The position numbers and the translations under genes were made by a program. Below, in pieces: positions 2-27,260 of a DNA stretch of 64,000 bases. How positions within the stretch are numbered: the stretch's first letter is position 1; the number at the start of each line of letters is the position of its first letter. The notes below the pieces were generated by a model. The model saw only the letters and a program-made list of their open reading frames with translations, was not told where the DNA came from and did not search any database. This DNA is from an uncultured bacterium (GTDB lineage: Bacteria; Zixibacteria; MSB-5A5; CAIYYT01), in the NCBI GenBank assembly GCA_963726455.1, contig CAVSCK010000004.1, positions 1,088,001 to 1,152,000 of the forward strand, written 5' to 3'.

Positions 2-1267
2 GGTGACACCCCTATTGATCTGCTTGAAGCAGCGCGCGCACTCAAGATAGAAGTGATCGGCGCAAACTGCTCAGTCGGTCCGCAACGATTATATGACTTC
101 GTATCCATCCTGCGGGCGACCTCCGACTTCATTTTGTCCGCACAACCGAATGCCGGCCAACCCCGCTACTATGAAGGGCGATTCTTCTATGTTTCCTCGC
201 CCGATTACTTCGCGGAGTATTGCCTCAAATTCCTAAGTCTGGGCGTTTCGCTAATCGGCGGCTGCTGCGGTACAACGCCGGAGCATATCCGCGCCATGCG
301 CAAAGTATTTGATTCTTACAAGCGAGTCAGCACCGAGTCGTCAGTAACTGCGATTGCGGAACCTCCGAAAAGGCCGGAGCGGGCCGCGCCGACGGCGCGC
401 GTGTCCAATTTCGCGTCCAAGTTGGGGAACAAATTTGTCGTGTCGGTTGAAATCGATCCTCCCAGAGGCGCTAATCCGGAAAAGCTGTTGAACGCCGCCG
501 TCAAACTCAGAGACTCGGGCGTTGATGCCGTCAACGTTGCCGATTCGCCGATGGCGCGCGTACGGATGAGCTGCCTGGCGATGGCGGGGTTGATCACCGA
601 TCGCGTCGGTTTGGATGTGATCCTGCATTTCACCTGCCGCGACCGCAACCTGATGGGACTCCACGCCGATCTGATCGGAGCACATGCTCTTGGAATACGT
701 AACGTTCTGGCACTGACCGGCGATCCGCCTTCACTCGGAGACTATCCAAACGCGACTGCCGTCTACGATGTCGATGCCATTGGACTGGTCGAGATCATCA
801 GCAAGTTGAACAACGGCACCGATCTCGCCGGCAACGCGCTCGGTTCACACACGGAATTCTCGATCGGCGTCGCGATCAATCCCACGGCGGACAATCTCGA
901 CGTTGAACTGGAACGACTGAAGCGCAAGATCGCTGCCGGTGCGCAGTTTGCCATGACGCAGCCGATGTACAAACTTGATATTCTGGAACGATTCCTTACG
1001 AAAGCGCAGAAGTTCGGGATTCCCACATTGCTCGGATTGTTGCCGTTGCAGTCGTATCGACATGCCGAGTTCCTCCATAACGAAGTACCCGGAATCGACA
1101 TCCCGCGCGAAACGCGCGACCGCATGAGCCACGCCGGGAAAGACGCCGCACAGGTCGGAATCGAGACTTGCCGCGATCTGTTGCACCAGGCCAAAGGTCT
1201 CGTGCAGGGTGCTTATCTGATGCCTTCCTTCGGCAGATATGAAACGATACTGCAAGTTTTAGAGTGA
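2..1267 (+). CDS. yitJ: Bifunctional homocysteine S-methyltransferase / 5,10-methylenetetrahydrofolate reductase (5' partial)
   Basis: GANC and IGGCCGTTPEHI HMT motifs followed by an MTHFR domain (VEIDPP, HFTCRDRN, LALTGDPP, FAMTQP). The frame is open from the window edge. Confidence 0.9.
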   Translation, partial: GDTPIDLLEAARALKIEVIGANCSVGPQRLYDFVSILRATSDFILSAQPNAGQPRYYEGRFFYVSSPDYFAEYCLKFLSLGVSLIGGCCGTTPEHIRAMRKVFDSYKRVSTESSVTAIAEPPKRPERAAPTARVSNFASKLGNKFVVSVEIDPPRGANPEKLLNAAVKLRDSGVDAVNVADSPMARVRMSCLAMAGLITDRVGLDVILHFTCRDRNLMGLHADLIGAHALGIRNVLALTGDPPSLGDYPNATAVYDVDAIGLVEIISKLNNGTDLAGNALGSHTEFSIGVAINPTADNLDVELERLKRKIAAGAQFAMTQPMYKLDILERFLTKAQKFGIPTLLGLLPLQSYRHAEFLHNEVPGIDIPRETRDRMSHAGKDAAQVGIETCRDLLHQAKGLVQGAYLMPSFGRYETILQVLE

Positions 1268-2823: not shown

Positions 2824-2830
2824 CAACTGA

Positions 2831-3583
2831 TCAGGGAAGTTGCATTACGTAAAAGACGTAACCGTAGTGGTCTGAATATTTCCGATAGATGTTGATCTCA
2901 GTCTGAGATGCTTCGATTATACCGAGCGCCCTTTCGTCTCTGGCATATGCTTGGCGCTTTTCATTCAGGCGATTTTCCAGCGGTGTGTAATAGTCATTCC
3001 ACCACGATGACGACGGCAGAGTAAAATAGCCCACGACAGAGTAGCCGAGATCAGTAATGATCTTCAGGTTGCTATGCACCGGCTGCATGGCCGGATATTC
3101 CTTGCCCCAATATTCGCGAACTTCGGCGGGCGGGTCGGCCGTCAGCCAACTGATTTCAGTCACAGCTATATAACCGCGCGGCTTCAGAAGGCGTCTCCAT
3201 TCCGCGAGCCCTTTCTCGAAACCGATGATGTATATCGCCCCCTCAGACCAGATGATATCAAAATAGCGGTCGGCATATTTCAGGTCCGTCATGTCGGCGT
3301 GGACAACGCGAACGCGATTGCTGATTCCCATTTCGACTGACTTAAGTTGCAGCGCGCCCAGAAACGGGCGATGCTTGTCAAGCGCGATGATTTCACACTC
3401 ACAGGCCTGCGCCAGATCGAGAGTCTGGGCGCCCGAACCACAGCCGATATCGAGAATGAGCGGATGCACCGGTCTCTTGGTCATCAGCGACAGTGCCCGC
3501 ACTGTCGAATCCGTGTCGCCGGGTCCCTGTCGTGGGAGGCCCTTGTAAACATCGAAGAAAACTTTGGTCAAGTGCTCGGTCAT
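2831..3583 (-). CDS. Class I SAM-dependent methyltransferase
   Basis: ILDIGCGSG motif I, FDIIWSEGAIY, and LPRQGPG N-terminus. Confidence 0.9.
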   Translation of the reverse strand: MTEHLTKVFFDVYKGLPRQGPGDTDSTVRALSLMTKRPVHPLILDIGCGSGAQTLDLAQACECEIIALDKHRPFLGALQLKSVEMGISNRVRVVHADMTDLKYADRYFDIIWSEGAIYIIGFEKGLAEWRRLLKPRGYIAVTEISWLTADPPAEVREYWGKEYPAMQPVHSNLKIITDLGYSVVGYFTLPSSSWWNDYYTPLENRLNEKRQAYARDERALGIIEASQTEINIYRKYSDHYGYVFYVMQLP

Positions 3584-3588
3584 ATAGC

Positions 3589-3695
3589 TGATAAGGCGAG
3601 ACAGGACGATAACGTCCTGACGCCGGATAAATTATGCGAGATGGCTCGCGGTTCAGAAGTAACTGAGCTGTCCCGTTTACACGGGGCAATTATCA
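3589..3695. other. Compact multi-hairpin (5-way junction) intergenic element
   Basis: TGATAA/TTATCA closes four abutting hairpins: 3595-3624, 3636-3649, 3651-3668 and 3669-3688. Confidence 0.5.
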
Positions 3696-3713
3696 CTCAA
3701 TAACAATAGCGGT

Positions 3714-4700
3714 CTAGTTGCACCATGACGGCGACGAATCATTTCCGGGACCGGACAATCTTACGGGTGCGCCGCCGCTAACAGAAATCTTATAGATGGT
3801 GCCCTTCTGTGTCGCAAACAGAAGCGACTTGGAATCAGGCGACCATGAAGGAACGGACAATGACAGCCCGTCTTGCTGCGGATCGGTCGGCGCCCACAGC
3901 TTTGTCTTGGCGGTCAAATCGGGTTTGATAATGAAAAGTCCCTGATTGCTTACGTCATTGGACACATAGGCGATCCACTGCCCGTCAGGCGACCAGGACG
4001 GCAGCGTTGCTCCGGTGAGCTTGCCCGCCTTCGCCAGGATGGCTTGATCTTTCAACGGATACTCAGCGACTGAGGCAATGGCAATTCCGGCCGGGACAAA
4101 TTGCTGACCCTGAACTCGGGTGACGGTGAACGCCACCTGCTTCATGTCGGGGGACATCGTGGGCGCGGCGCACAGCAATTCGGAGGTCGGCTCCTGCTCA
4201 AGATCACGCAATAAGAAGCTCTTGGTGTCGTAGAAGCTGAGACGCCATTTCGGCAACGTCGCATTTACTGTATTGGCAGCGCGATCATGAACAAACAGAA
4301 TCCTGCTACCGTCGCGACTGAATTCGGGAGACTGGCCGCCCATGGTTTCCGTGATCCCTTCCCAGAAACTATTGGTGGAATCGGTGTAGCCGTAGAAAAG
4401 ATCGTATATTTTGTGCTGGCCGCCACCGCCATCAGGATACTTTATCGCGAGATCGCCGCGCCGAACAAAGGCAATCTTGCGATTGTCGGGCGACCAACTC
4501 AAACGGCCTACCACGTTCGAAATACCGGCGATAAACGGGCGCTGGTTGGAGCCGTCCGATTCCATCAGCCAAATGTCGCCGCTACGGACAAAAGCGATGG
4601 TCTGACCTTTCTTGATTCCGTTGGCAGCTACAGCAGCGATGGCCAAAGCTACGACAAATGCAAATGTAATGATGGCGAAGCGTCTCATATCTCTCCTCAA
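3714..4700 (-). CDS. Secreted TolB-like / PD40 beta-propeller protein
   Basis: Signal peptide and repeated PSWSPDG / WSPD / FSRDG PD40 motifs. Confidence 0.8.
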   Translation of the reverse strand: MRRDMRRFAIITFAFVVALAIAAVAANGIKKGQTIAFVRSGDIWLMESDGSNQRPFIAGISNVVGRLSWSPDNRKIAFVRRGDLAIKYPDGGGGQHKIYDLFYGYTDSTNSFWEGITETMGGQSPEFSRDGSRILFVHDRAANTVNATLPKWRLSFYDTKSFLLRDLEQEPTSELLCAAPTMSPDMKQVAFTVTRVQGQQFVPAGIAIASVAEYPLKDQAILAKAGKLTGATLPSWSPDGQWIAYVSNDVSNQGLFIIKPDLTAKTKLWAPTDPQQDGLSLSVPSWSPDSKSLLFATQKGTIYKISVSGGAPVRLSGPGNDSSPSWCN

Positions 4701-4890
4701 GTCACATAGTCTATTGACGAAAGTTCATCCTACCTAATCTTTTTACCCGTAAAGCCCCGATTGTTTCAAATTATCGGTAAGCTATTGATTTAGCTTGAGA
4801 TGTCAACCAATAAGTGGAGACGTTTTCCCTGCGTCTTGGAGTCTCGTGGGACTACTCTGCCTGAGAACATCGAAGCAAATTATGTCCTAA

Positions 4891-4925
4891 ATCAAACAGG
4901 GCGGTCTTACGACCGCCCTGCTTTT
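4891..4925 (-). terminator. Rho-independent terminator of the hdr-hyd-mvh operon (possibly bidirectional)
   Basis: Perfect 10-bp stem CAGGGCGGTC/GACCGCCCTG with a GTAA loop on the minus strand. T-rich tails on both strands. Confidence 0.75.
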
Positions 4926-4965
4926 CACGGGAGCGAAACTGGGAAGAGAGCCTTCCACATGGGGA

Positions 4966-5442
4966 TTACTTACTCACGGTCTTGGCGGCAATCCAATTCT
5001 TCACCGCAGTTAAGGCCGTTTCCACTGATTTCTCGACTTGCGGCGTCATTTGTTCGCCGAGAGTTTCAACATCCTGCGCCTCAACTGCCAACACCTGAAT
5101 GTCTTTGGGCATCGCCATCTGCAGTTGTGTTCCGAGTTCAATGGCGGTTGGCAAATTGATCTGGTGGCTGTTGATGAGATTGTACGACGGCGTCAACGCA
5201 CCGGCGGGGAAAAAATGAACCGTGCCCGGCCGGGATTTGCCGGTTATGATCGCATCGACAATGAGAACCGCCTTGCGGCCTTTCAACAAATCCAACAATC
5301 CGAATCCGGCGGTCGGGGCAAATATCACTTCGACCATATCGTGATCGAGGCCGTTTTCATTCAGCCGGCGGGCAACCGCAGGGCCGAATGAGTCATCCGA
5401 AAGTATGTCGTTACCCAGGCATAAGATGAGAAGTGGTGTCAA
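4966..5442 (-). CDS. [NiFe]-hydrogenase maturation protease
   Basis: LCLGNDILSDDSFG, VLIVDAI and NSHQ motifs. Directly downstream of the hydrogenase large subunit. Confidence 0.92.
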   Translation of the reverse strand: MTPLLILCLGNDILSDDSFGPAVARRLNENGLDHDMVEVIFAPTAGFGLLDLLKGRKAVLIVDAIITGKSRPGTVHFFPAGALTPSYNLINSHQINLPTAIELGTQLQMAMPKDIQVLAVEAQDVETLGEQMTPQVEKSVETALTAVKNWIAAKTVSK

Positions 5443-6923
5443 ACGTTCCTCCGAGCAGTCTGGATTATTTCACCGGTTGCAGCATCATGTATGATTAATT
5501 CCAGCGGCATTTCGCCGGGAAGCGTGTGAGTCGCGCAACCAAAACAGGGATCGTACGCACGAAACGCCATTTCAATTCGATTGAGAATTCCGTCCGTAAC
5601 TGTCACGCCCTTCTTGATCAATCCCTCGGCGGCTTTCTTGATCGACATAGATATCGGCGCGTTGTTGTTGGTGGTGCCGACGATCAGGTTAGCTTCAGTG
5701 ACTATGCCGTTCCTGTCGGTCTTGTAGTGATGTGTCAGCGTCCCGCGCGGAGCTTCCACGATTCCGACCCCTTCGCCGACGATGCCGGTTGGCGGTTCGA
5801 GGATTTTGTCAGACGTGATTTCGTCGTCCTGCGCCTGCTCCAAAGTCGCCTCGGCGGCAAACATCAGTTCGACCACGCGAGCCCAATGAGTGGCCAACGT
5901 CGAATGAATCGGAGTCTTGCCGGTGCGGTCACCGGTCAGAGTTTCATACATGCGTTCGTATTCGGCCTGCGCCAGCGGGGTCGCCATACCGTCTGCCACG
6001 TTGCAGCGTGACAGCGGCGTCGCTTTGTACACACCCGAATCCATGCCGTCGACGAATCCCTTCCAGCCGACCTTCTTCAGGTACGGATACTTGAGATAGC
6101 TGTACGGCTCGACGTGTTCGGCGACATATTCGAGATAGTCCTTTGGCTCATATTCGGCGTGCTTGCTGCCGTCGGGAGCAGTAACTCTCACCTTGCCGTC
6201 ATAGAAGTTGGTCTTGCCGTTCGCATCCACCAGACCCATGTTGTAAGTCTTGTGCGTGAACATGTCGGAAATGATCAGATCGACATAACCCTTGTTCGCG
6301 AGCACGATGTCGTTCAACACCTGAATCGTGAACTTGGCGAACTCGACCATGCCCTTCGCCAGCTCGATAATCTCCTGCTGTTCTTGCTTGGTAACACGCT
6401 TGGTATTGCCGCCAGGAACAGCCGTTACCGGATGCACCTTCTTGCCGCCGATGATTTCGATTACACGTTGTCCGGCGGCACGCTGAGCAATAACTTTCTT
6501 GCCGGCATCAATTCCGACCTTGGCTACGACGCCGAGGATATTTCGTTCAGCCGGCGGCGCATCAGGACCGCAAACGAAATCGGGGCCACCCAGCGCATAG
6601 AAATGCGTGGTGTGGTCGCCCGCGTAGAACGCGTTGTACATCAATTCGCGCAACTTACGAGCTGCACTCGGAATCGTAACACCGTACACTGCGTCCGCTG
6701 CCTTTGCGGCAGCGAGATGATGCGCATCGGGACAGACGCCGCAAATGCGTGTCGTGATGCGGCACATTTCCTCGACCGGACGACCCTGCGCGAATTTCTC
6801 GAAGCCGCGCAGTTCCGGAACCTGGAAATAGCAGTTCGCCAAGCCGCCGTCATCATTGACGAACAGATGAATCTTGCCATGCCCTTCGAGACGGGTGATC
6901 GGGTCAATCAGTATCTGTTTCAT
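5439..6923 (-). CDS. mvhA: [NiFe]-hydrogenase large subunit, group 3c (MvhA-like)
   Basis: PITRLEGH, ELRGFE, L1 RICGVCPDAH, EAPRG, and L2 RAYDPCFGCATH with a cleavable C-terminal tail. Confidence 0.93.
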   Translation of the reverse strand: MKQILIDPITRLEGHGKIHLFVNDDGGLANCYFQVPELRGFEKFAQGRPVEEMCRITTRICGVCPDAHHLAAAKAADAVYGVTIPSAARKLRELMYNAFYAGDHTTHFYALGGPDFVCGPDAPPAERNILGVVAKVGIDAGKKVIAQRAAGQRVIEIIGGKKVHPVTAVPGGNTKRVTKQEQQEIIELAKGMVEFAKFTIQVLNDIVLANKGYVDLIISDMFTHKTYNMGLVDANGKTNFYDGKVRVTAPDGSKHAEYEPKDYLEYVAEHVEPYSYLKYPYLKKVGWKGFVDGMDSGVYKATPLSRCNVADGMATPLAQAEYERMYETLTGDRTGKTPIHSTLATHWARVVELMFAAEATLEQAQDDEITSDKILEPPTGIVGEGVGIVEAPRGTLTHHYKTDRNGIVTEANLIVGTTNNNAPISMSIKKAAEGLIKKGVTVTDGILNRIEMAFRAYDPCFGCATHTLPGEMPLELIIHDAATGEIIQTARRNV

Positions 6924-7891
6924 TGCTGCACCCTCCTTAACATCGAAGTCGGCAAGCTGAACCGATAGAACGTTCCCAGGGGATCAGGAATTGTATCCAG
7001 AATCTGTTCGACCTCCTGCTCGTCGATGGAATCTATCACACTCGCCAATGCCGACGCCATCTTGGCGCCCTGATCGCGCACGTTGGACGGCAACCCGTAG
7101 CAACCGCGACACGGCACACCCGCTTTGACGCACTTTGCGCCACATCCTGAACGCGTCGCCGGACCAAGGCAGACAATCCCCTGCTCCATCAGGCAAAGGT
7201 CGGGATCGGTGACCTTTTCAAAGGGACGAATGAACTTCTTGATCTTCTTGACATTGCGCTGGCGCGGGCATTCATCGCAACAGGATTTTTCGCTGGCGCC
7301 CAGCACCGTGCCTTTCGGCGGCAGCGGCTTGCTGTTCTTGAGAATGTCAACGACGGCATCAATCACAGCCGCGATCTGATTTGACTGTGGCGGACAACCG
7401 GGAATGATGTAGTCGACGTCCACGACCTGCGGAAGTGTGCGGACGGTGTTCCACAGGAACGGAATATGAACCATGCCTTCAGCAACTTTCACTTCCGGCT
7501 GCGGCATGATGCCGTTGCCCGGTTCCAGTGACGGCGACAGTTTGTAAACATATTCCATGATCGATTGTTTGTCATAGAAGTTTGCCAGTCCGGGAATACA
7601 ACCTTCGGAAGCGCAACTGCCAAAGGCGCACAGCACGACCGATTTGTCCCGCAGCAGGCGCGCGATTTCATAATTCTCGTCACTGCGAATCGCGCCATTG
7701 AAAAGAGTGAGTGTGATTTCTTTGTCCTGCATCTTGCGAACGTCGTCATACTTGAAATCAAGGGCGCAAGGCCAGAACACAATGTCGAAGAAGTCGGCGA
7801 CCTCAAGGATCTTCGCCTCGATATCGAGAATCGCGACATCGCAGCCCCCGCAGGAGGAGGCCCAGTATATTGCTAGTTTCGGTTTTGCCAT
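6920..7891 (-). CDS. mvhG: [NiFe]-hydrogenase small subunit (MvhG-like)
   Basis: SSCGGC, FGSCASEG, IPGCPP, CCDEC and CLGPATRSGC..C...PCRGC motifs. Alternative GTG start at 7900. Confidence 0.9.
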   Translation of the reverse strand: MAKPKLAIYWASSCGGCDVAILDIEAKILEVADFFDIVFWPCALDFKYDDVRKMQDKEITLTLFNGAIRSDENYEIARLLRDKSVVLCAFGSCASEGCIPGLANFYDKQSIMEYVYKLSPSLEPGNGIMPQPEVKVAEGMVHIPFLWNTVRTLPQVVDVDYIIPGCPPQSNQIAAVIDAVVDILKNSKPLPPKGTVLGASEKSCCDECPRQRNVKKIKKFIRPFEKVTDPDLCLMEQGIVCLGPATRSGCGAKCVKAGVPCRGCYGLPSNVRDQGAKMASALASVIDSIDEQEVEQILDTIPDPLGTFYRFSLPTSMLRRVQQ

Positions 7892-7896
7892 CTTGC

Positions 7897-8355
7897 TCAC
7901 TCCCCTGCCGCGACGGCAGCAGCTTCCGCCTGTTCAGGTACGAACGCCCATTCCTGCAAACGTAGCGGTCCGAGCGCACGAATCTGCGCGGTAAAGCTGT
8001 CGACCACTTCCTGAAAACGGGCTCCTTCAGATGCCGACACCCATTCGAGACGCAGGCGTTCCGGGGAGATACCCATGCCTTTCAGAATCCGCTTGGTGAT
8101 TGCCACGCGACGCATGCACTTGTGATTCCCCTCGACATAGTGGCAGTCACCGAAATGGCAACCGCACAAAAGCACGCCGTCAGCGCCGGCGCGAAACGAA
8201 TCGAGAACAAACCCGGGATCGACGCGGCCGGAACACATCACGCGCACCGTCATCACATTAGGGGCATACTTCATGCGCGCGGTGCCGGCCAGATCGGCTC
8301 CGGTATAACTGCACCAATTGCAGAGAAATCCGACAATACGTGGTTCGAAACTCAT
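7897..8355 (-). CDS. mvhD: Hydrogenase iron-sulfur subunit D (MvhD/FlpD)
   Basis: FLCNWCSYTGADLAG, RVMCSGRV, GCHFGDCHY and EWVSASEG motifs. Confidence 0.95.
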   Translation of the reverse strand: MSFEPRIVGFLCNWCSYTGADLAGTARMKYAPNVMTVRVMCSGRVDPGFVLDSFRAGADGVLLCGCHFGDCHYVEGNHKCMRRVAITKRILKGMGISPERLRLEWVSASEGARFQEVVDSFTAQIRALGPLRLQEWAFVPEQAEAAAVAAGE

Positions 8356-10115
8356 GTAAGCATCCCCTCGATCTGAGCATAGATTTGTTCATCGGTGAAT
8401 TGGCGGGCCATTATCGCGCCCGAAGGACAGGCGGCTACGCAAGTGCCGCAGCCCTTGCACTGAGCTGAATTCACGACGCTCACTTTCTTGGCTTCGTCAT
8501 AGCTGACCGCAGTGTACGGGCACATATCGTTGCAGATTTTGCAGCCGCTGCAGAATTCCTCCATGATTTCAGCGTAGGCCGCATCCATCATGATCTCGCC
8601 TTGTGCCATCAATTTCATCGCCTGTGCAGCGGCAGCCCCGCCCTGTGCGACGCTGTCGGGAATATCTTTGGCGCCCTGGCATGCTCCGGCCAAGAAAATG
8701 CCGTCGGTAGTCGTCGACACCGGAGCGAGCTTCGGATGCGCTTCGATAAACCAGCCATCAGCGCCGGTGGAGATATTGAATTTGCGCCCGAACTCCTTGG
8801 CATCCTTGCGGGCCTCCAAAGCCGTGCAGAGAATGACCATATCGACCGGTATTTCTCGATACTTGCCGATCAGCGTGTCTTCGCAACGGACGATCAGATG
8901 ACCTTCCTCGTCGCGGCGATAGCCCGATGGCACAACCTCTGCGCCCTTGCCGCGAATAACATTGACGCCTTCTTCGAGAATGCGAGCGTAGAATTCTTCG
9001 TATCCCTTTCCGAAGGCGCGCATGTCGATGTAAAGTTGGTATACCTCGGCAGAGGTCTTCTCTTTTACGAGATGCGAGAATTTCAACGCGTACATGCAGC
9101 ACACGCGGCTGCAATATTTATGGTGGTCATGATCACGGCTGCCAACACAATGCAGAATCGCAATCGCCCGCGGTTCTTCGCCGTTTTCGAGCACGATCTT
9201 GCCGCCGGTCGGTCCCGCGGCATTGTTCATGATCTCGAACTCTTCGGAAGAAATCACATTCGGTATTTTGCCGTAGCCATACTGTTTCATTGGCGTCGGA
9301 TCAAAACTGTCGAACCCGGTTGCAATCACCACAGCCCCAACTTCGACTTCTTCGGTTTTCGGGCCGTCGCCATAATCAATGCATTCTTTGGGACAGACCT
9401 TAGAACAAACCATGCAGCCGCCGGTCTTGTAGTGAATGCAGTTTTCACGTACGATCTGCGGGACGTTGGGCACCGCCTGTCGGAAAGGCAGGGTGATTGC
9501 GGCATTCGGCGACAAGTTCATCTCCTGATGGACGATGAAGCGATTTTCGATCTCTTCCATCTTGATGTATCCCGTCGGACAATGTTTGGCACAGGCGCCG
9601 CAGAGAATGCAGGAATCGGAATCGCGGCCGAAGGGCGTCGAAATATCGCGTTTGGCGCCCCGGTTGACGAATGCCAGCGCGTGCGCGCCGACAACTTCGT
9701 CGCAGATACGGACACACAGCCCGCACAGTATGCACGTGTAATTCCCCGTTCCCCAGCGCGGCTCGGGAATGCCAAGTTGTTCGGCGAGTCGCTGCAACAC
9801 AGGCACAGGCGAGCAGTTGGCCATCAGCATTTCCAAATTCGTCCGCCGAGCGTTGATCACGCGCGGCGTGTCCGTCACGATTTCGAGTCCATCCCAAACC
9901 GGGTAGTTGCAGGCCGTCACGATTTTCGACCAGCCACCTGCGCTGCGCGCCTCGACGCAACAGATGCGGCAAGCGGCGTACGGCACCATATAGGGATAGT
10001 AACAGAGCGTCGGAATCTCTACACCGATCGACTTGGCCGCCTCCAGAACATAAGTACCGTCGTCGACCTCGATCTCCTGACCGTCAATAGTAATTTTCAC
10101 TTTGTCCATAGCCAT
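8352..10115 (-). CDS. Fusion protein: HydA/NuoG-like N-terminal Fe-S domains plus the C-terminal half of heterodisulfide reductase HdrA
   Basis: N-terminal [2Fe-2S] (IPTLC..ACRIC..TAC) and 2[4Fe-4S] (CILCGLCVRIC, CILCGACAKHCP). Then the HdrA segment PFRQAVP, VIATG, CVGSRD..YCSRVCCMYALK, GIFLAGACQGAKDIP and a C-terminal ferredoxin. Confidence 0.88.
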   Translation of the reverse strand: MAMDKVKITIDGQEIEVDDGTYVLEAAKSIGVEIPTLCYYPYMVPYAACRICCVEARSAGGWSKIVTACNYPVWDGLEIVTDTPRVINARRTNLEMLMANCSPVPVLQRLAEQLGIPEPRWGTGNYTCILCGLCVRICDEVVGAHALAFVNRGAKRDISTPFGRDSDSCILCGACAKHCPTGYIKMEEIENRFIVHQEMNLSPNAAITLPFRQAVPNVPQIVRENCIHYKTGGCMVCSKVCPKECIDYGDGPKTEEVEVGAVVIATGFDSFDPTPMKQYGYGKIPNVISSEEFEIMNNAAGPTGGKIVLENGEEPRAIAILHCVGSRDHDHHKYCSRVCCMYALKFSHLVKEKTSAEVYQLYIDMRAFGKGYEEFYARILEEGVNVIRGKGAEVVPSGYRRDEEGHLIVRCEDTLIGKYREIPVDMVILCTALEARKDAKEFGRKFNISTGADGWFIEAHPKLAPVSTTTDGIFLAGACQGAKDIPDSVAQGGAAAAQAMKLMAQGEIMMDAAYAEIMEEFCSGCKICNDMCPYTAVSYDEAKKVSVVNSAQCKGCGTCVAACPSGAIMARQFTDEQIYAQIEGMLT

Positions 10116-10119
10116 ACTC

Positions 10120-12129
10120 CTACACCACCTCCGCCGCTATTTTTTTGATGGGCGGTTGCCACAACTCACGCGCACGTTCTTGCAGTTTGTCACCGTCACC
10201 ACGCTTGACACGTTTGATTGAGTTGTAGCGGCAAATCTGGTAACAGGCGCCGCATTGAATGCACTTGTCCTGCAGGATGTAGTGCAGACGCTTCGGTTCG
10301 CCGACGATCGCGCTGGTCGGGCATGATTTCAGGCACGCGTGACAACCATTGCAGGTGTTGTCGATGGCGTGCGACACCAGGTCTTTGCAGACACCGGCCG
10401 GACAGCGTTTGTCGATGACATGTGCCAGATATTCCTGACGGAAATAGCGGATGGTAGACAACACCGGATTCGGCGCGCTGCCGCCCAACTGGCACAGACT
10501 GGTGTCGATAATTACCTGCGATAGTTCTTCGAGATACTCGATGTCCTCGATCGTACCCTTTCCTTCACAAATCTTTTTGAGGATGTTCAACATCACGACC
10601 AATCCCTCGCGACAGGGAACGCATTTGCCGCAGCTCTCTTCCGTGAGGAAATTGATGAAGTATCGCGCGACATCGACCATGCAGGAATCCTCGTCCATCA
10701 CGATCATTCCTCCCGATCCCATCATCGATCCGGCCTTGGTCAATTCATCAAAGTCTATGGGCAGATCGAGCAGGCTGACCGCCTCGTCTTCCTCGCGGAT
10801 ATCGCCATGAGCTACCATACTGGCGTGAATTTTCGCTTCGGCAGTTTCGACAATGAGCGTGCCGCCCGACGGTCCGCCTGTCTGCACGGCCTTGAAGCGC
10901 TTGCCACCCGGCACACCGCCACCGATATCGTACAGAATTTCGCGCAAGGTAATTCCCATCGGTACTTCGACCAGGCCGGTGTTGTTGATCTTGCCGGTCA
11001 AAGCAAAAACCTTGGTACCTTTGGAACCCTCGGTGCCGATTCCGGCAAACCACGCCGAACCGCGCTCGATAATTGGTGGGACGTTCGCCCAGGTTTCGAC
11101 GTTGTTCAAGTTCGAGGGTTTCTCCCACAGTCCCGCTTCGACGGTGTGAATGTACTTGGCGCGCGGTTCGCCGACCTTGCCTTCCAGCGAAGCCATCAGC
11201 GCCGTCGACTCACCGCAGACAAACGCGCCGCCGCCGCGCGAAATCTCAATATCGAAACCAAAGCCGGTTCCGAGAATATTCTCGCCGAGCAGTCCGTAAT
11301 CGCGCGCTGCTTTGAGTGCGATCGCCAGGTTTTTGACTGCCAACGGGTACTCATTGCGGACATAGACAAAACCTTCGTGGCTGCCAATGGCGTAAGCGCC
11401 GATGATCATTCCTTCGATGACCTGATGCGGATTGCCTTCCAGCAGGGAGCGATCCATAAAAGCGCCCGGATCACCCTCATCCGCGTTGCAGATCACATAT
11501 TTGGGTTGTCCTTTGGCTGCCCGGCACGATGCCCATTTCTTTCCGGCCGGGTAGCCACCACCTCCGCGGCCGCGCAGACCGGATTTCTTGATCTCATCTA
11601 TGACCTGTTCGGCTTTCATCGTGGTTAATGCCTTGACAACCGCTTGATATCCGCCGAGCAGGATGTAGTCATTGATCGCGGTCGGATCCATCACGCCGTT
11701 CTTGCCGAAGATGATTCGCTGTTGCTTCTTGTAGAAAGGTATATCCTTCTCGTGTTTGATTATCTGGTTGGTTTGGGGATCGCGATACAACAGTTTATTG
11801 ACCAGTTGACCGCCTTTGACCGTCTGCTCCCAGATCAACTTGGCATCTGCCGGCTTGACGCGCTGGTAGAAGACTCTCTGGGGATGAACTACAACCAACG
11901 GTCCGCGCTCACAGAATCCGTGGCAGCCGGTTGACTTGATCTCAACTTCATTTTCCAGGCGATCCTTCTCGCATTCATCGCGGAACGCTTTCAGAACGCT
12001 CTCGCATCCACACGCCAGACAACCGGTCCCAGAGCAAACGGTGACCATCGTCTTGTTCGCGTTGCGGCTCTTTTCAAGATGATCTTTCAGCGCCAACAGG
12101 TCGGCGGTGGTTTTTAGTTTCTGGATCAT
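10120..12129 (-). CDS. HydB/NuoF-like FMN- and NAD(H)-binding subunit
   Basis: N-terminal [2Fe-2S] (CSGTGC, CHGFC), GLRGRGGGG, CNADEGDPGAFMDR, GAFVCGE, ESCGKCVPCREG, H..CPAGVC and a C-terminal 2[4Fe-4S]. Confidence 0.92.
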   Translation of the reverse strand: MIQKLKTTADLLALKDHLEKSRNANKTMVTVCSGTGCLACGCESVLKAFRDECEKDRLENEVEIKSTGCHGFCERGPLVVVHPQRVFYQRVKPADAKLIWEQTVKGGQLVNKLLYRDPQTNQIIKHEKDIPFYKKQQRIIFGKNGVMDPTAINDYILLGGYQAVVKALTTMKAEQVIDEIKKSGLRGRGGGGYPAGKKWASCRAAKGQPKYVICNADEGDPGAFMDRSLLEGNPHQVIEGMIIGAYAIGSHEGFVYVRNEYPLAVKNLAIALKAARDYGLLGENILGTGFGFDIEISRGGGAFVCGESTALMASLEGKVGEPRAKYIHTVEAGLWEKPSNLNNVETWANVPPIIERGSAWFAGIGTEGSKGTKVFALTGKINNTGLVEVPMGITLREILYDIGGGVPGGKRFKAVQTGGPSGGTLIVETAEAKIHASMVAHGDIREEDEAVSLLDLPIDFDELTKAGSMMGSGGMIVMDEDSCMVDVARYFINFLTEESCGKCVPCREGLVVMLNILKKICEGKGTIEDIEYLEELSQVIIDTSLCQLGGSAPNPVLSTIRYFRQEYLAHVIDKRCPAGVCKDLVSHAIDNTCNGCHACLKSCPTSAIVGEPKRLHYILQDKCIQCGACYQICRYNSIKRVKRGDGDKLQERARELWQPPIKKIAAEVV

Positions 12130-12647
12130 GCCGCCTCCGTTCCGCTTGCGGATTTCTTCTTGTGCAGCAACTCATCAAGCATCTTGTCAACCTTGGTGAC
12201 CGTCATGTGGCCGTAGTAGACTCCGTTTGCCGTCACCAACGGACCCAGGGCGCAGGCGCCCAGGCAGTTGACAGTTTCGAGACTCACTTCCCCGTCAGGA
12301 GAGGTGTCTCCTGACTGAAGTCGAAGATCGCGCTCCAGTTTGTCGACAATCACTTTCGCCTGCCGAACGTGACAGGCCGTGCCCGTGCAGACGCAGATAT
12401 GATTTCTGCCGGTCGGTTTGAGCGTGAAGGCGCGATAGAAAGTCGCGACACCGTAAATTTGAGCCAGCGGCAGTTTCATGTTCTTGGACACTGCGCGCAA
12501 TGCGTCCTCCGGCAGATAGCGATAATGCTTCTGAATATCCTGAAGTATCATAATCAGCGCGGTCGGTTTGGCGCCATATTCGCCGACGATCTCTTCAATC
12601 TTGCTGTCGAGATCATAGGCGGTGTTAGCTGCAACTGTTATGGTCAT
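12126..12647 (-). CDS. HydC/NuoE-like [2Fe-2S] subunit
   Basis: YGVATFY, CTGTACH and CLGACALGP motifs. Confidence 0.92.
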   Translation of the reverse strand: MTITVAANTAYDLDSKIEEIVGEYGAKPTALIMILQDIQKHYRYLPEDALRAVSKNMKLPLAQIYGVATFYRAFTLKPTGRNHICVCTGTACHVRQAKVIVDKLERDLRLQSGDTSPDGEVSLETVNCLGACALGPLVTANGVYYGHMTVTKVDKMLDELLHKKKSASGTEAA

Positions 12648-13633
12648 GGCTTAACTCCTTCCAGCGCTTCTTCCGCAGTCGTCTCCACATTCTCCGGCAT
12701 CGGTTGCGCGCCGGTCAGAGGCGTCAGGTCGTGTTTTGGCCCCATCGACCACTTGTCCTGCACGTCCAGCAATCGCCCTTCGCGATAGACCAGATCGCCC
12801 AGGATCATGCGGCGATTCTGTGGATACGGCACGCTGGGACAGGCCTCATAGCATGAGCCGCAACTGTTGCACTTCAGCGGATCAACGTACCGGGCTTTCT
12901 TCTTGATCTTGACTTTGAAGTTGCCGATGTAGCCCTCGACGTTTTCGATCTCCGCGTAAGTCACCAGCTTGATGTTGGGATGCTTCCCGACCGAAACCAT
13001 CTTCGGCGTCAGAATGCAGGCAGCGCAATCGAGGGTCGGGAAGGTCTTATCAAAGTGTGACATGTGTCCGCCGATGGAAGCATCGCGTTCGACCAATATC
13101 ACCTCGTATCCGGCGTCCGCCATTTGAAGCGCGGCTTCAATACCTGCAATGCCCGCGCCAACGACCAGGACTCGGCGAGTAATCGGCACACGACGCATTT
13201 CCAGCGGTACCTGGTAGCGAACGCGCGCGACGGCAGCTTTGACGAGCGCTGTGGCTTTAGCCGTCGCGGCTTTGGGATCAATCGTCACCCAACTTACCTG
13301 TTCGCGCACGTTGGCCATTTCGAACAGGTAGCGGTTCATCCCGGCAACTTCCACCGCTTTACGGAAAGTATTTTCGTGCATCAGCGGGCTGCAGGCAGCA
13401 ACTACGACGCGATCGAGTTTGAGTTCCTTGATATCTTTCTGAATCATTTCCTGGCCGGGGTCGGAGCACATGAAACGATAATGTCTGGCGACCACTACGC
13501 CGGGGAGCGACTTGGCGGCCTCGGCGACTTTGGCGACATCCACCGTCTTGGCGATGTTGGTGCCGCAATGACACACGTACACGCCGATGCGCGGGATGCC
13601 GTTGCCGCCGCCAACCTTGAGATTGTCAGTCAT
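12644..13633 (-). CDS. hdrA: Heterodisulfide reductase subunit A, N-terminal half (split HdrA)
   Basis: RIGVYVCHCG, MCSDPGQ, ACSP, GAGIAG FAD motif and KTFPTLDC. Ends after a single CNSCGSCYEACP motif. Confidence 0.9.
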   Translation of the reverse strand: MTDNLKVGGGNGIPRIGVYVCHCGTNIAKTVDVAKVAEAAKSLPGVVVARHYRFMCSDPGQEMIQKDIKELKLDRVVVAACSPLMHENTFRKAVEVAGMNRYLFEMANVREQVSWVTIDPKAATAKATALVKAAVARVRYQVPLEMRRVPITRRVLVVGAGIAGIEAALQMADAGYEVILVERDASIGGHMSHFDKTFPTLDCAACILTPKMVSVGKHPNIKLVTYAEIENVEGYIGNFKVKIKKKARYVDPLKCNSCGSCYEACPSVPYPQNRRMILGDLVYREGRLLDVQDKWSMGPKHDLTPLTGAQPMPENVETTAEEALEGVKP

Positions 13634-14511
13634 GCCCTAACCTCCTTTGCACAGGCGATTAGCTTGTCCGGCGAGATCAGAAAATCGTTCAATCCCATCC
13701 GGGCGGGCGGAACTCCAAGCGCGACGCCGACCAGGTGGCTGAAATAGACGATCGGTATGTTGAAGTTCCGGTCGAAGGCCTGATTTATCTTCTTCTGATA
13801 GGCCTCCAGATTCATTTGGCAAAGCGGACACGCGGTGGCAATCAGCTCCGCCCCATTATCCACAGCCGCTTGCAAGAGAGTCATATTCAATTTCAGGGCG
13901 ACACTTTCTTCGGTAGTCATCAACATGCCGCCGCAGCAGCGCACTTTGCCGGGAAAGTTGGTTACTTCGGCGCCAAGCGCGCGCAACAGATTGTCCATCG
14001 TGATTGGATCATCGACGTCGTCGAAGAAGCCATAAGGCCTTACAATCTGGCAGCCGTAGTAAGGCGCGACTTTGATACCCGTCAGTGGATTGACGACTTT
14101 CGCTTTGATAGCTTCAATGCCGGTGTCGTTGACGAGAATATCGACTGGGTGACGTACCTCGGTCTTGGCATCATACGAGAGATTGGCGGCGCCAAGCGCT
14201 TGATTGATCTTATCGCGCTCTTTCGGATCCCAGCAAAGATGCCGATTGGTCTTCCGCAGAATTGTGAAACAACTGCTGCAGGGAGCGCAGACGTCCATTC
14301 CCATTTTCTGCGCGATCGCGAGATTACGGGCGCTGATCGAAAAGGCGACCGTGTTGTTGACGGACATGTACATCGTGGCGCCGCAGCAGTTCCAGTCTTC
14401 AATTTCGTGCAGGCCGATGCCCAGCAACTTGAAAACCTCGCGGATCGACTTGTCGTACGGACTCGCTGCCGTTTCCAAGCTGCAACCGGGATAGTAGGCG
14501 TAGTCCGACAT
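13630..14511 (-). CDS. hdrB: Heterodisulfide reductase subunit B
   Basis: Two CCG domains: YYPGC..WNCCG..PCSSC and YYGC..RCCGG..ACPLC. Confidence 0.93.
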   Translation of the reverse strand: MSDYAYYPGCSLETAASPYDKSIREVFKLLGIGLHEIEDWNCCGATMYMSVNNTVAFSISARNLAIAQKMGMDVCAPCSSCFTILRKTNRHLCWDPKERDKINQALGAANLSYDAKTEVRHPVDILVNDTGIEAIKAKVVNPLTGIKVAPYYGCQIVRPYGFFDDVDDPITMDNLLRALGAEVTNFPGKVRCCGGMLMTTEESVALKLNMTLLQAAVDNGAELIATACPLCQMNLEAYQKKINQAFDRNFNIPIVYFSHLVGVALGVPPARMGLNDFLISPDKLIACAKEVRA

Positions 14512-15098
14512 CAGTTCTCTCCTAGCTGGTTTGCGCGTTTGATAATTGCGCGAACTTCGTTGATGCGTTTGATCCTGCTGGGTAACACCGCCAGCCGTCC
14601 GCGGCGAAACATGGCCAAACCGAAGCCCGCCATTGTGAACATTTTCACAAAATTGGACTTTAGTAGATACCGAACAACGAGTCCAAGCTCGTGGTTTCTG
14701 CCGTAACGGTAGACGTTGTCTATGAACGCCTTGGACAGCGAATGCACCGGAAATTTGGCCGGATAAATCTTACGCGACATCGCGATACGCTTGAGCGCGT
14801 ACAATGTGTCGGTCACCCTGATTCCCGAAGGACAGCGGACGGTACACGAGTAACACGAAGCGCAGATCCAGATCGTGCGGCTATGAAGAATATCTTCGAT
14901 CCGTCCAGCACGAAACAACGCCACCGTCTGTCGCGGCGTGATGTCCATCGCATATGACACTGGACAGGCGCCACTGCAGGTGCCGCACTGAATGCACGAC
15001 TTGATCTTGTCGCCTTCCGGGACGTTCTTCAACTGTCCCCAGAAAGCCGATCGTAACTCGGCCTCGCTCTTGGGAAAAGGTTCGATTTTTTCGATCAT
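14511..15098 (-). CDS. hdrC: Heterodisulfide reductase subunit C
   Basis: CIQCGTCSGACP and WICASCYSCTVRCP motifs. Confidence 0.93.
   Translation of the reverse strand: MIEKIEPFPKSEAELRSAFWGQLKNVPEGDKIKSCIQCGTCSGACPVSYAMDITPRQTVALFRAGRIEDILHSRTIWICASCYSCTVRCPSGIRVTDTLYALKRIAMSRKIYPAKFPVHSLSKAFIDNVYRYGRNHELGLVVRYLLKSNFVKMFTMAGFGLAMFRRGRLAVLPSRIKRINEVRAIIKRANQLGEN
14633..14650. promoter_or_regulatory. Perfect Rex-box (also CRP/FNR-type) palindrome inside hdrC
   Basis: TTGTGAA-CATT-TTCACAA matches the Rex consensus TTGTGAA-N4-TTCACAA exactly. Confidence 0.5.
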
Positions 15099-15223
15099 AC
15101 ATACTCCCGCATCTCGGAAAGTTCGGAACCGTTATCGCTGCCGCGACAATGCTCCGGCACACGTCTTCCCCGCGTGCTCCAGAAGGTACACTAAACTTGT
15201 CTTTCATCGTTTAGTGTGTCTAT

Positions 15224-15252
15224 ATTCTACTCCCCGCACCGGCACGTGTCAA
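15224..15252 (-). promoter_or_regulatory. Sigma70-type promoter of the hdr-hyd-mvh operon
   Basis: TTGACA-N17-TAGAAT on the minus strand, about 125 nt upstream of hdrC. Confidence 0.7.
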
Positions 15253-15561
15253 GAGATTTTTTTCACAAAGTCATCATATTGTTTGTGTCGGCACTCTCCC
15301 GCAATCACCTTAACTGGCGCATGTCAGAACACAGGTTACGCCCTCCGGTTTTTCACCTACATCGCCGCTTCCTGGCACAAGTATCCGGCAATTGAGCTTA
15401 CCGATGCAGCCCAAATCCGATCTCTTTTTTGCGTTTTCAGAACCCAGAATTGTGATTGCGTATTACATTGCCGCGCAATATATAAGCTTTGTATTTTAGT
15501 CGGGCAGCGGGCAGGATGGGAACTTCACCGGAAAGGACGCGTAAGCTCTTTATACAACGCT

Positions 15562-17244
15562 ATGGACGCCAAGCAATACACTACAGAAAGCCGATTCTCG
15601 GAATCGCGGACGAAAACCGTCAGCGAGTTCTATGACGAAGTCAAGGGGCTCCTCCAGACTAACGCACTGGCAGTACTGATCTACCATCGGCTCCGCATGG
15701 AGCTGGAGGTTCGACTGTTCATGCCGTCCGAACTGCGGACGTTTTCTCTGCGCGAGATTGCCCCCAACGAGTTCGAGGAATTGGCTCTTGCCGACCTTCC
15801 GCCGCGAAACCCGGTCTATCTGGCTTTGTGCGACATTGTGGGTTATTGCCCCTCCGGTCACAAGGCATATCTCGTTCACGCCGAAGGGTATATATCGGCC
15901 ATGTTCCTGCTTTTTGCGCAGGAAGACCTGCAACCATTATCGGAATATCTGGAGCGTCACATTGAGCTATTCTCCTTGAAGCTCCACCATGCGATTCTCG
16001 TCGACGCTTACCACCGCAGCATGCTGGAACTGGAACTGCTTCAGGAAACTGGCGAAGTACTCTCCATGTCATTCCACATGGAGGAGGTATTCAAGGGAAT
16101 TGTCAGTGCCATACAGAAACTGCATCCGTTCGACGCACTGGGTATCTTCATTCTGAGCCCCAATAACGAGACCATGGAAGAGATCTTCTCAAAGGGTTAC
16201 GAATCCGAATCATCACGGCACATGCTGGAAATAAAGGCCGATCGCGGCCTGGTCGGCTGGGTCACCAAGACCGGCGAGCCGGTGATTGTGCCCAACGTCC
16301 AGGAGGATCCCCGATACGTCAATACCCGGGAAACCACTCACTCAGAGCTGGTCGTGCCGCTCTATTCCGGCAAACAGGTAATCGGCGCCTTTAATTTGGA
16401 GTCCGATCAATATGACGCTTATTCCCCGCTCGATCTGGAAATGGTGCGGGCGTTTGCCAACCAGGTCTCGCTATCAGTTACGCGGGCACGGCTTTACAAG
16501 GAACTCGTGATCAAGAATCGCATTGACGATCAACTGGAAGTGGCGCGGGACATTCAAAAATCTTTCCTTCCCGCCGGGCCACCGAAATATACCGGATTCG
16601 ATTTTGACGCGATCAATATCTCGTCTGAGCAGGTTGGAGGCGACTATTTTGACTTTATCCCGATTGTCGACCAGCAATTGGGGGTCACAATAGCCGATGT
16701 TTCCGGCAAAGGGCTGCCCGCGTCATTAATCATGGCGTCGTATCGCGCGTCTCTTATAGCAGAGATAAGGAACAACTATGCCATCCGGACAATCATGCGC
16801 AAAGTGAACAATCTGATCTGTGAATCTGTAGAACGAGGAAACTTTGTCACGGCTGTCTATGGCGTCTTGGATACCAGAAATCGGGTGTTCACTTTCTCCA
16901 ACGCCGGTCATAATCCACCATTTGTCTTGCGCAAATCAGGGGAAGTCGAATTCCTCACGGATGGTGGGCTTATCTTAGGAATTATGCCGGATCGCGACTA
17001 TCAGGAGCGCCCGCTTCACATTGGCACCGGCGATATTCTGGTATTGTATACCGACGGAGTTACCGATTCAGAGAATGAGAAGGGGGATCAGTTCGGCACG
17101 GAGCGGCTGGTGGAATTAGTTCGATTAAACAAGCGGTTGCCGGCCAGGGAAATCAGAACCAGAATAGTCACGGCCATTGACCAATTTCGCACCGGTGACG
17201 GCCAGCCGGATGACCTGACGCTGGTCGTAATCAAGTCTGAATAG
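15562..17244 (+). CDS. GAF-domain SpoIIE/RsbU-type PP2C serine phosphatase
   Basis: GAF domain (GLVGWV..P.IVPNV..DPRY, SELVVPL) plus VGGDYFD, ADVSGKG, NAGH, YTDGVTD and DDLT. Start moved to ATG 15562 because the longer ORF overlaps hdrC and its promoter. Confidence 0.9.
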   Translation: MDAKQYTTESRFSESRTKTVSEFYDEVKGLLQTNALAVLIYHRLRMELEVRLFMPSELRTFSLREIAPNEFEELALADLPPRNPVYLALCDIVGYCPSGHKAYLVHAEGYISAMFLLFAQEDLQPLSEYLERHIELFSLKLHHAILVDAYHRSMLELELLQETGEVLSMSFHMEEVFKGIVSAIQKLHPFDALGIFILSPNNETMEEIFSKGYESESSRHMLEIKADRGLVGWVTKTGEPVIVPNVQEDPRYVNTRETTHSELVVPLYSGKQVIGAFNLESDQYDAYSPLDLEMVRAFANQVSLSVTRARLYKELVIKNRIDDQLEVARDIQKSFLPAGPPKYTGFDFDAINISSEQVGGDYFDFIPIVDQQLGVTIADVSGKGLPASLIMASYRASLIAEIRNNYAIRTIMRKVNNLICESVERGNFVTAVYGVLDTRNRVFTFSNAGHNPPFVLRKSGEVEFLTDGGLILGIMPDRDYQERPLHIGTGDILVLYTDGVTDSENEKGDQFGTERLVELVRLNKRLPAREIRTRIVTAIDQFRTGDGQPDDLTLVVIKSE

Positions 17245-27170: not shown

Positions 27171-27260
27171 AGATCACCTGTTCGGTTTAATGTATTCACG
27201 GCGGTTAGATTAATCCGCCTGACAATGCCTCTATCCATAAGCCGCCACAAGGGACGGCGA

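Follow-up and report, generated by a model that had tools for sequence, protein, structure and literature searches.

Ten open reading frames (ORFs), head to tail on the minus strand between positions 4966 and 15098 (transcription 15098 to 4966) of a 64,000-nucleotide window from an uncultured sediment bacterium of the Zixibacteria (contig CAVSCK010000004.1, here C4; C4:1088001-1152000), may encode one soluble Mvh-Hdr-Bfu complex. In such a complex H2 would be bifurcated at the flavin adenine dinucleotide (FAD) of HdrA, and the low-potential branch would run into a Bfu module; the probability of this reading is put at roughly 0.45. The hdrA gene is divided, with the Bfu genes between its two parts and a BfuA-type arm fused to the C-terminal part of HdrA; this order is conserved, and the arrangement argues for one physical complex and not for co-transcribed neighbours. 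The ten-gene Mvh-Hdr-Bfu layout is common in uncultured bacteria. The genome that holds the window (3.64 Mb on five contigs) is rated 100% complete with 2.1% contamination.

Division of hdrA around the Bfu genes

Assignments with Pfam and NCBIfam gave the gene order HdrC, HdrB, HdrA N part, NuoE/HoxE/HydC-like, NuoF/HydB-like, HydA-HdrA C fusion, MvhD, MvhG, MvhA, and protease. The genes overlap by 4 nt at eight junctions and by 1 nt at one, and a 4-nt gap is found at one. In the order of transcription, they are as follows.

14511..15098, minus strand: hdrC, 195 aa, two [4Fe-4S] motifs (Fer4_8, E 1.9e-11; TIGR03290, E 3.2e-20, below cut-off)
13630..14511, minus strand: hdrB, 293 aa, two CCG domains of the non-cubane [4Fe-4S] active site (PF02754, two stretches)
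12644..13633, minus strand: hdrA N part, 329 aa (HdrA2 model positions 1-256 of 777, E 2.9e-114)
12126..12647, minus strand: bfuC (hydC/nuoE-like), 173 aa, [2Fe-2S] (PF01257, E 5.2e-48; HoxE model, E 1.8e-43)
10120..12129, minus strand: bfuB (hydB/nuoF-like), 669 aa (7t2r_B, NiFe-HydB, E 9.7e-228; 8a6t_B, HydB, E 2.8e-217)
8352..10115, minus strand: fusion gene, 587 aa, HydA/NuoG-type N-terminus and HdrA C part (HdrA2 model positions 262-640, E 4.3e-129)
7897..8355, minus strand: mvhD, 152 aa, [2Fe-2S] adaptor (PF02662, E 3.2e-53; 8rvu_F, E 3.7e-51; 5odc_D, E 2.2e-50)
6920..7900, minus strand: mvhG, 326 aa, [NiFe]-hydrogenase small subunit (PF01058; VhuG model, E 7.3e-65, below cut-off)
5439..6923, minus strand: mvhA, 494 aa, [NiFe]-hydrogenase large subunit (VhuA model, E 1.2e-117; 5odc_F, E 1.3e-119)
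4966..5442, minus strand: hydrogenase maturation endopeptidase, 158 aa (PF01750, E 4.3e-16; TIGR00072, E 8.5e-34, above cut-off)

The initial annotation of this DNA had read a normal HdrABC set here. HdrA was instead found to be split over two genes 2.5 kb apart, with the NuoE-like and NuoF-like genes between them. The N part contains the N-terminal cluster domain, the first half of the FAD (TrxR-like) domain, the cysteine motif m0 (C255-C265), and a tail of about 60 aa, and its residues 14-272 align with residues 4-262 of 5odc_A, the HdrA of M. thermolithotrophicus (E 1.6e-102). The fusion protein continues this alignment with its residues 165-586 (5odc_A 242-650, E 6.2e-107), and its residues 4-195 align with residues 3-195 of the NuoG-like chain 9mqx_A (E 2e-33) and residues 7-191 with residues 2-208 of T. 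maritima HydA (7p5h_A). Its first ∼190 residues, HydA/NuoG/HoxU-like, carry a [2Fe-2S] site (C38/49/52/69) followed by the motifs m1 (C128-138) and m2 (C169-179), whose spacing and intervening sequence we take to be typical of HydA/NuoG. The C part consists of an HdrA-type spacer, the motif m3 (C226/234/237/241), the rest of the FAD domain, and the C-terminal ferredoxin domain.

In the inserted ferredoxin domain, whose first CxxCxxCxxxCP motif is m0, the cut in HdrA falls directly after this motif, and the BfuA-type arm is spliced in 47 residues before m3, the second motif of the domain. The gap is occupied by bfuC, bfuB, and the HydA-type Fe-S N-terminus joined to the remainder of HdrA, so that HdrA is not a single polypeptide with a contiguous inserted ferredoxin domain. 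Since the Bfu module and the HydA-type arm are inserted into hdrA, HdrA consists of two polypeptides, with the arm covalently continuous with the second half of the domain. For the 16 cysteines of the four motifs to hold four [4Fe-4S] clusters, m1 must pair with m2 and m0 with m3; hence, m0 and m3 probably rebuild the two-cluster inserted ferredoxin domain in trans, and m1 and m2 probably form a HydA-type domain. The cysteines of m0 are conserved in 30 of 30 relatives, and those of the [2Fe-2S] site, m1, m2, and m3 of the fusion protein in 45 of 45. The His-ligated cluster motif of BfuA is absent from the fusion protein, which has a single Cys, C101, at that place (kept in 33 of the 45 relatives).

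The motifs quoted in the initial annotation (KTFPTLDC, EFEIM, MYALK, GAFM, GAFVCGE, CPAGVC, and the C-terminal 2×[4Fe-4S]) were all recovered. Because hdrA is split, the three HdrA motifs lie in two genes, KTFPTLDC apart from EFEIM and MYALK; the flavin-side residues are thus present as proposed, whereas the single HdrA gene that they were ascribed to is not. By counting along the alignment, K196 of the N part (KTFPTLDC, kept in 30/30) corresponds to K187 of 5odc_A, E294 of the fusion protein (EFEIM, 45/45) to E356, and K345 (MYALK, 44/45) to K409; E356 and K409 are presumably the published residue numbers. In passages of a recent preprint on class II benzoyl-CoA reductase (BCRII), a lysine at the flavin N5 is given as a hallmark of Hdr-type flavins (10.64898/2026.04.10.717634). 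As for the HydABC-like part, HydB and HydC are present as annotated; a HydA-type N-terminus, which had not been reported, is also encoded, joined to the HdrA C part.

It was considered whether the operon could encode two independent enzymes that share a transcript (Mvh-Hdr and a free HydBC-like NADH:ferredoxin module), or whether a gene had been broken by an assembly error. Indel errors or pseudogenes do occur in this assembly, as a BfuB-like gene on contig C5 reads as two ORFs. However, among 59 related loci, taken from a scan of one genome per species with genes called by tblastn using the ten window proteins, the split, the gap genes, and the fusion recur in 44 independent loci of several phyla; the cluster ligands are intact, and the 4-nt overlaps link the genes. 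Either version of this explanation is therefore regarded as very improbable.

Subunit signatures and the predicted electron route

The solved chains closest to BfuB are bifurcating B subunits (7t2r_B, 9mqx_B, 8a6t_B, 7q4v_B, and NfnB), whereas NuoF of complex I is a much weaker match (E 5.5e-109). BfuB is made up of an N-terminal [2Fe-2S] domain, the flavin mononucleotide (FMN)/NAD(H) site, the clusters B1 and B2, and a C-terminal 2×[4Fe-4S] domain. The FMN/NAD(H) and B1 regions match PF01512 (E 2.3e-43) and PF10589 (E 4.5e-32), with C500, C503, C506, and C546 kept in 38 of 38 relatives. The motif GAFM is located at 222-225, GAFVCGE at 301-307, and CPAGVC, with H570, at 576-581. In the main text of Schut 2022 (PMC9304861), bifurcating Bfu B subunits are distinguished from non-bifurcating homologues by the clusters B2 to B5, and the B2 ligands of A. 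mobile BfuB (C438, C476, H525, C531, and C536) are described as absent from the latter. In an alignment to 7t2r_B that is ungapped over these stretches, these ligands map to C483, C521, H570, C576, and C581. All but the second are conserved in 38/38; position 521 is Cys in 15, Ser in 17, and Thr in 6 relatives, and the same text reports Cys or Thr at the equivalent position (Schut 2022, PMC9304861). The C-terminal B3/B4 ligands (C593-C633) are kept in 38/38, as are C69 and C73 of the N-terminal B5 [2Fe-2S] cluster, of which C32 and C37 are kept in 37/38. A223 and M225 of GAFM (A202 and M204 in the numbering of Schut 2022) are likewise kept in 38/38; the third Bfu-specific residue of that study, F182 of A. 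mobile BfuB, was left unmapped, position 182 of 7t2r_B not being Phe in the alignment. The bifurcating signatures claimed for HydB are thereby borne out, with all five B2 ligands and the extra N- and C-terminal clusters retained. BfuB agrees with the published definition of the Bfu family, and ferredoxin/NAD-coupled bifurcation is predicted for it. In BfuC, the ligands of the C1 [2Fe-2S] cluster (C87, C92, C128, and C132) are kept in 40 of 40 relatives.

BfuB also carries a 24-residue acidic, histidine-containing insert at about 428-452 (window 10770-10850), which is present in 33 of the 38 relatives and missing in five Acidobacteriota-type variants and in the solved BfuB chains. Possibly, this insert serves as a docking element that is peculiar to the Hdr-linked form.

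The best solved relatives of HdrB are methanogen HdrB proteins (8rvu_b, E 1.3e-44), with which all ten cysteines of the non-cubane clusters align; these are conserved in 36 of 36 relatives. In HdrC, seven of the eight cluster cysteines are kept in 32/32 and C38 in 31/32. MvhA has both cysteine pairs of the large subunit, RICGVC (59-64) and DPCFGC (458-463); its best solved match is 5odc_F, with 7t2r_D close behind. The Mvh/Vhu subunits being the closest, the initial assignment to group 3c of the [NiFe]-hydrogenases is consistent with these data, as a label that follows from best matches.

According to the proposed mechanism, H2 would be oxidised at MvhA, and the electrons would pass via MvhG and MvhD to the FAD of HdrA and be bifurcated there. 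The high-potential electron would be passed by HdrC to HdrB, where the non-cubane clusters would reduce a disulfide, and the low-potential electron would go through the inserted ferredoxin domain to the Bfu core, where it would be shared between NAD+ and ferredoxin. The chain to BfuB would be extended by m1, m2, and the [2Fe-2S] cluster beyond the m0/m3 domain. The formal reaction would be 4 H2 + 2 RS-SR + NAD+ + 2 Fd(ox) → 4 RSH + NADH + 2 Fd(red), where Fd is ferredoxin. This proposal draws support from the conservation of every cluster ligand of the chain. It is also in agreement with methanogen complexes, in which, as far as the consulted portion of PMC13518236 describes them, the inserted ferredoxin domain receives the low-potential branch from the bifurcating FAD. 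The occurrence of other NAD(P)-type modules at the same HdrA site, as in the GltD/NfnB-like insert of HdrL, was counted in its favour as well.

The route would amount to a two-stage cascade, in which the low-potential electron of HdrA enters a second, Bfu-type bifurcation centre, and H2 with a disulfide yields NADH and a reductant at the level of ferredoxin or lower; this cascade is held to be somewhat less probable than the reading as one Mvh-Hdr-Bfu complex. Of the earlier suggestion that two bifurcation centres are coupled to H2, the hallmark residues are confirmed, a single complex is favoured by the gene architecture, and the activity is a prediction. From our own calculation with textbook potentials, it would suffice for half of the lifted electrons to reach the ferredoxin potential, so that the reaction would be feasible at the low H2 of sediments. 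By the same calculation, the driving force at low H2 would be larger than in the classical reaction, where all lifted electrons reach ferredoxin.

Several points weigh against the proposed complex and its wiring. The wiring was read from primary structure only. In passages of the BCRII preprint, the HydBC module of Bam, the only Hdr-plus-HydBC complex with a solved structure, is a confurcating input, i.e., the opposite order (10.64898/2026.04.10.717634). At 1 bar H2, the reduction of NAD+ and of the disulfide is already exergonic, and a second bifurcation is not thermodynamically required. HdrB and HdrC score under the curated cut-offs of the coenzyme B–coenzyme M (CoB-CoM) models, HdrB with 193 bits against a TIGR03288 cut-off of 345. 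Two of the related loci (L016 and L019) retain both the split and the HydA-type arm, whereas bfuC and bfuB are missing between the HdrA halves, which are two ORFs in L016; such an arm is thus possible without a Bfu core in the operon. Lastly, DsrC, a candidate disulfide partner, occurs in 26 of the 40 genomes with a full-length fusion and in 100 of the 161 without one. These counts are a hand tally of 201 sampled genomes of the window's phylum, with three genomes with partial or broken fusion matches (G086, G098, and G190), all with DsrC, included among the 161.

The similarity to NiFe-HydABCSL raises another explanation, a reversible hub that mainly makes H2. In it, the Bfu part would confurcate NADH and reduced ferredoxin, HdrA would serve as a wire to MvhDGA as in NiFe-HydABCSL, and HdrBC would be a side branch or regulator. 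BfuB (7t2r_B, E 9.7e-228) and MvhA (7t2r_D, E 7.4e-110) are indeed about as near to NiFe-HydABCSL as to any solved enzyme. Zixibacteria RBG-1 has been described, in the portion of Castelle 2013 considered here, as a fermenter with ferredoxin-producing oxidoreductases that needs to re-oxidise ferredoxin, and the present genome has POR-type (pyruvate:ferredoxin oxidoreductase) genes and two further Bfu sets. A mere wire, however, would not need the bifurcation-type residues of HdrA or the ten HdrB cysteines, which are strictly conserved, and feeding electrons backward into the low-potential branch of HdrA would presumably call for a thiol donor at HdrB for H2 to be made. This explanation is therefore considered unlikely in comparison with the Mvh-Hdr-Bfu complex driven by H2.

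Distribution, operon boundaries, and genome context

Among the 59 loci, all ten genes occur in the order of the window in 26, the order is followed as far as the contig or locus end in 17, and one has the order without a match to MvhD. The fusion without visible NuoE/F-like genes was found in three (L016, L018, and L019), of which L018 begins at the fusion and cannot be judged. The HdrA C part alone was matched in 12, namely, ten Desulfobacterales, a Zixibacteria locus (L045), and a contig-end fragment (L047). As labelled, the carriers are Zixibacteria, KSB1, Calditrichota, Acidobacteriota, 'Deferrimicrobium', and bins named Ignavibacteria or Alphaproteobacteria, and all are metagenome bins. 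For the fusion protein, at least 120 full-length relatives were obtained at 90%-identity clustering, also from records of KSB1, Calditrichota, Acidobacteriota, and Eisenbacteria. Their database names are only 'heterodisulfide reductase subunit A(2)' or '4Fe-4S dicluster domain-containing protein'.

In five loci (L037, L039, L040, L041, and L043), 3.0-4.0 kb of extra sequence lies between the HdrA N part and the NuoE-like gene. In L040, the genes in this stretch (1673-5117) are for two ATPase proteins of the histidine-kinase type, a HydS-like protein with an [FeFe]-hydrogenase domain, and DRTGG and PHP proteins. Genes of this set (HATPase, HydS-like, DRTGG, and PHP) are companions of hydABC operons. 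The presence of such regulator-like genes inside the split hdrA of Acidobacteriota-type variants suggests that the cassette originated from a HydABC-type operon. Two loci, L056 and L045, encode an HdrA of ∼1200 aa (1214 and 1243 aa) with a GltD/NfnB-like insert (Fer4_20 and Pyr_redox_2) at the same site, a form that corresponds to HdrL (Strittmatter 2009, PMC2702500); in the Zixibacteria locus L045, this gene stands in an hdrCB-hdrL-mvhDGA-protease frame like that of the window operon.

In a quick maximum-likelihood tree computed for the C part of HdrA (75 rows, 337 columns, midpoint root, with branch support from the SH-like approximate likelihood-ratio test, SH-aLRT, only), 41 of the 46 fusion-type rows fell in one clade with a support of 98. 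The clade also holds two HdrL rows of the L045 type, identical in sequence, and two forms without bfuBC. The other five fusion-type rows fall outside it, three of Acidobacteriota type grouped apart and two beside HdrL or plain HdrA rows, and well-supported branches force four separate placements of the Zixibacteria HdrL rows. From these placements, the insertion site looks like a repeated point of module exchange, and exchange at the site within the inserted ferredoxin domain looks to have happened more than once.

The boundaries of the window operon are marked by two features.

15224..15252, minus strand: promoter-like site TTGACA-17-TAGAAT, 11/12 consensus positions, 126 nt upstream of the hdrC start (a consensus match only)
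4889..4923, minus strand: intrinsic-terminator-like hairpin with a T-rich tract, 13-pair stem at 4923-4894, 46 nt past the last stop

The hairpin has a folding energy of −27.7 kcal/mol (z = −6.9), and equal stability was reached in none of 200 shuffles; the stem at 4923-4894 is not among the matches of the consensus scan. With the promoter-like site on the 5′ side, a strong hairpin on the 3′ side, and ten translationally coupled genes between them, the idea of one promoter-to-terminator operon holds. Upstream, a divergent gene for a GAF and SpoIIE (PP2C-type phosphatase) protein is located at 14992-17244 on the plus strand. Since its longest ORF runs over both the promoter-like site and the start of hdrC, its true start probably lies further downstream. 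On the opposite strand to the operon, 3.7 kb past its end, a gene at 2-1267 (plus strand) encodes a homocysteine S-methyltransferase/MTHFR fusion, an adjacency that is not kept at the other loci. The upstream neighbours, including the GAF and SpoIIE gene, are common only to the nearest relative (L002), and L030 has one weak match. As the flanking genes are not conserved, they give no functional clue. Farther along, at 26275-29437 on the minus strand, lie short partial ORFs (matching 73-220 of 371 positions of the Aminotran_5 model and 1-85 of 325 of DUF1015, and a 205-aa piece of a 2-hydroxyacid dehydrogenase), which look like genes broken by frameshifts or assembly indels.

The genome harbors a single Hdr/MvhD set, and a canonical NuoEFG-like set is also present. 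A Bfu set at C1:42500-48600 (L066) includes a 1254-aa BfuA with GltD-like and molybdopterin domains, and by its domain order and PDB matches it resembles Stn/Nfn-type transhydrogenases (8oh5 and 9bov). At C5:402000-408000 (L067), pyruvate:ferredoxin-oxidoreductase subunits are encoded beside a small BfuA-like protein and the BfuB-like gene in two ORFs mentioned above (223 and 341 aa), in a Por-Bfu-like cluster; the break may be a frameshift, an assembly indel, or a pseudogene. At C5:96000-106000 (L068), a group-3b-like [NiFe]-hydrogenase operon comprises a Fer4_22 protein, an NAD-binding subunit, the small and large subunits, and a protease, together with a cNMP-binding protein, HypF, and HypD.

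No match to the alpha subunit of methyl-coenzyme M reductase (MCR) was found in this genome, rated complete, in agreement with the view of the host as a non-methanogen; CoM-S-S-CoB is therefore unlikely to be the substrate. The search of the genome for a disulfide partner of HdrB, which had been suggested with the initial annotation, led to a DsrC locus at C4:1339564-1341889, 237 kb from the operon. Its DsrC has both C-terminal cysteines (C-x10-C, penultimate Cys) and is followed by a 213-aa ORF with no Pfam match and a DsrK-like Fer4 and CCG protein. Neither a NIR_SIR-type sulfite reductase nor TusA was found in the genome, and GcvH-type proteins gave two matches, neither close to the operon. 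DsrC as the obligatory partner of HdrB was rejected, as it is not co-distributed with the fusion operon; the 14 fusion genomes lacking it are 94-100% complete.

Comparison with known systems

The methanogen complex MvhAGD-HdrABC (5ODC, 8RVU, and 9SW2) shares all six of its subunit types with the window operon, with E values of 1e-102 and 6e-107 for the HdrA halves, 2e-50 for MvhD, and 1e-119 for MvhA, and the flavin-side K and E and the non-cubane cysteines of HdrB are common to both. It differs in that hdrA of the window is in two genes around the Bfu cassette and HdrB is distant (E 1e-44). In addition, the low-potential exit is predicted to lead to a built-in NAD/ferredoxin module, whereas that of methanogens leads to free ferredoxin or a polyferredoxin. 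Metabolic reconstructions that score such loci as plain Mvh-Hdr would overlook the link to NAD(H), for which Zixibacteria RBG-1 may serve as an example (Castelle 2013, in part).

The NiFe-HydABCSL/Bfu family (PMC9304861, 7T2R) shares the complete BfuB and BfuC and the BfuA-type N-terminal arm; in contrast to it, the third 'substrate' in the window would be the HdrA flavin and not a catalytic metal site. In the main-text passages of Schut 2022 (PMC9304861) covered here, an Hdr-Mvh class is not listed. HdrL, as outlined in the portion of Strittmatter 2009 (PMC2702500) considered, has an NAD(P)H-type flavoprotein module inserted at the same HdrA site, after the first Fer4 motif, with mvhD next to it. 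The insert of HdrL, however, is one GltD/NfnB-like domain within one polypeptide, whereas the window has a three-part Bfu cassette that splits the gene; no Fer4_20 match was found in the window's genes, which sets them apart from HdrL. The literature search found no paper on the split-HdrA/Bfu layout or on 'Hdr-Bfu', although reviews or supplementary tables may already list this cluster type.

Flavin-based bifurcation modules have long been studied singly. To our knowledge, no enzyme other than Bam has been described in which a single complex unites a HydBC-type module with an HdrA-type bifurcating flavin and an MvhD-like adaptor. That the two types of bifurcation module can be chained has been demonstrated for Bam in the 2026 preprint of Appel et al. 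(10.64898/2026.04.10.717634), in whose consulted sections BamGH confurcates NADH and reduced ferredoxin and electrons enter via BamI, the C-terminal ferredoxin domain, and the MvhD-like BamF, the inserted ferredoxin domain being the low-potential output. Bam[(BC)2DEFGHI]2 is described there as a complex without hydrogenase, in which BamB contains tungsten, BamE is a double HdrA in fused form, and the distal cluster of BamD is disrupted. The window operon, in contrast, has a [NiFe]-hydrogenase as input, intact and separate HdrB and HdrC, and a HydBC module spliced in at the inserted ferredoxin domain. No match to the aldehyde-oxidoreductase-type family was found among the ten ORFs with Pfam and NCBIfam, and only one HdrA equivalent is encoded, so that the operon is not of the Bam type.

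A Bam-like order could nevertheless apply, with the Bfu part confurcating NADH and reduced ferredoxin as a second input to the HdrA flavin beside H2; the substrate of HdrB would be reduced with either donor, and the low-potential electron would exit by another route. The parts are homologous, and this order was demonstrated for BamGHI → BamE in the BCRII preprint (10.64898/2026.04.10.717634) and proposed by Schut 2022 (PMC9304861), both considered in part. Its likelihood is nevertheless judged low: in Bam, electrons enter by way of the MvhD-like adaptor and the C-terminal ferredoxin domain, the arm lies here in the inserted ferredoxin domain, the MvhD position is already taken by MvhAG encoded directly downstream, and no other low-potential exit or acceptor module is found among the operon genes. 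The analogy with Bam drawn at the outset thus applies to the parts and fails for the wiring. With MvhAG occupying the MvhD position and the inserted domain receiving the Bfu arm, the Bfu module would be placed on the output side of the Mvh-Hdr-Bfu complex. The splice at the gene level offers a concrete wiring prediction for structural work, and it also reveals a site of module exchange. If the prediction is true, the operon would show that the two modules combined in Bam can also be chained in a second, independent manner, driven by H2 and with Bfu on the output side.

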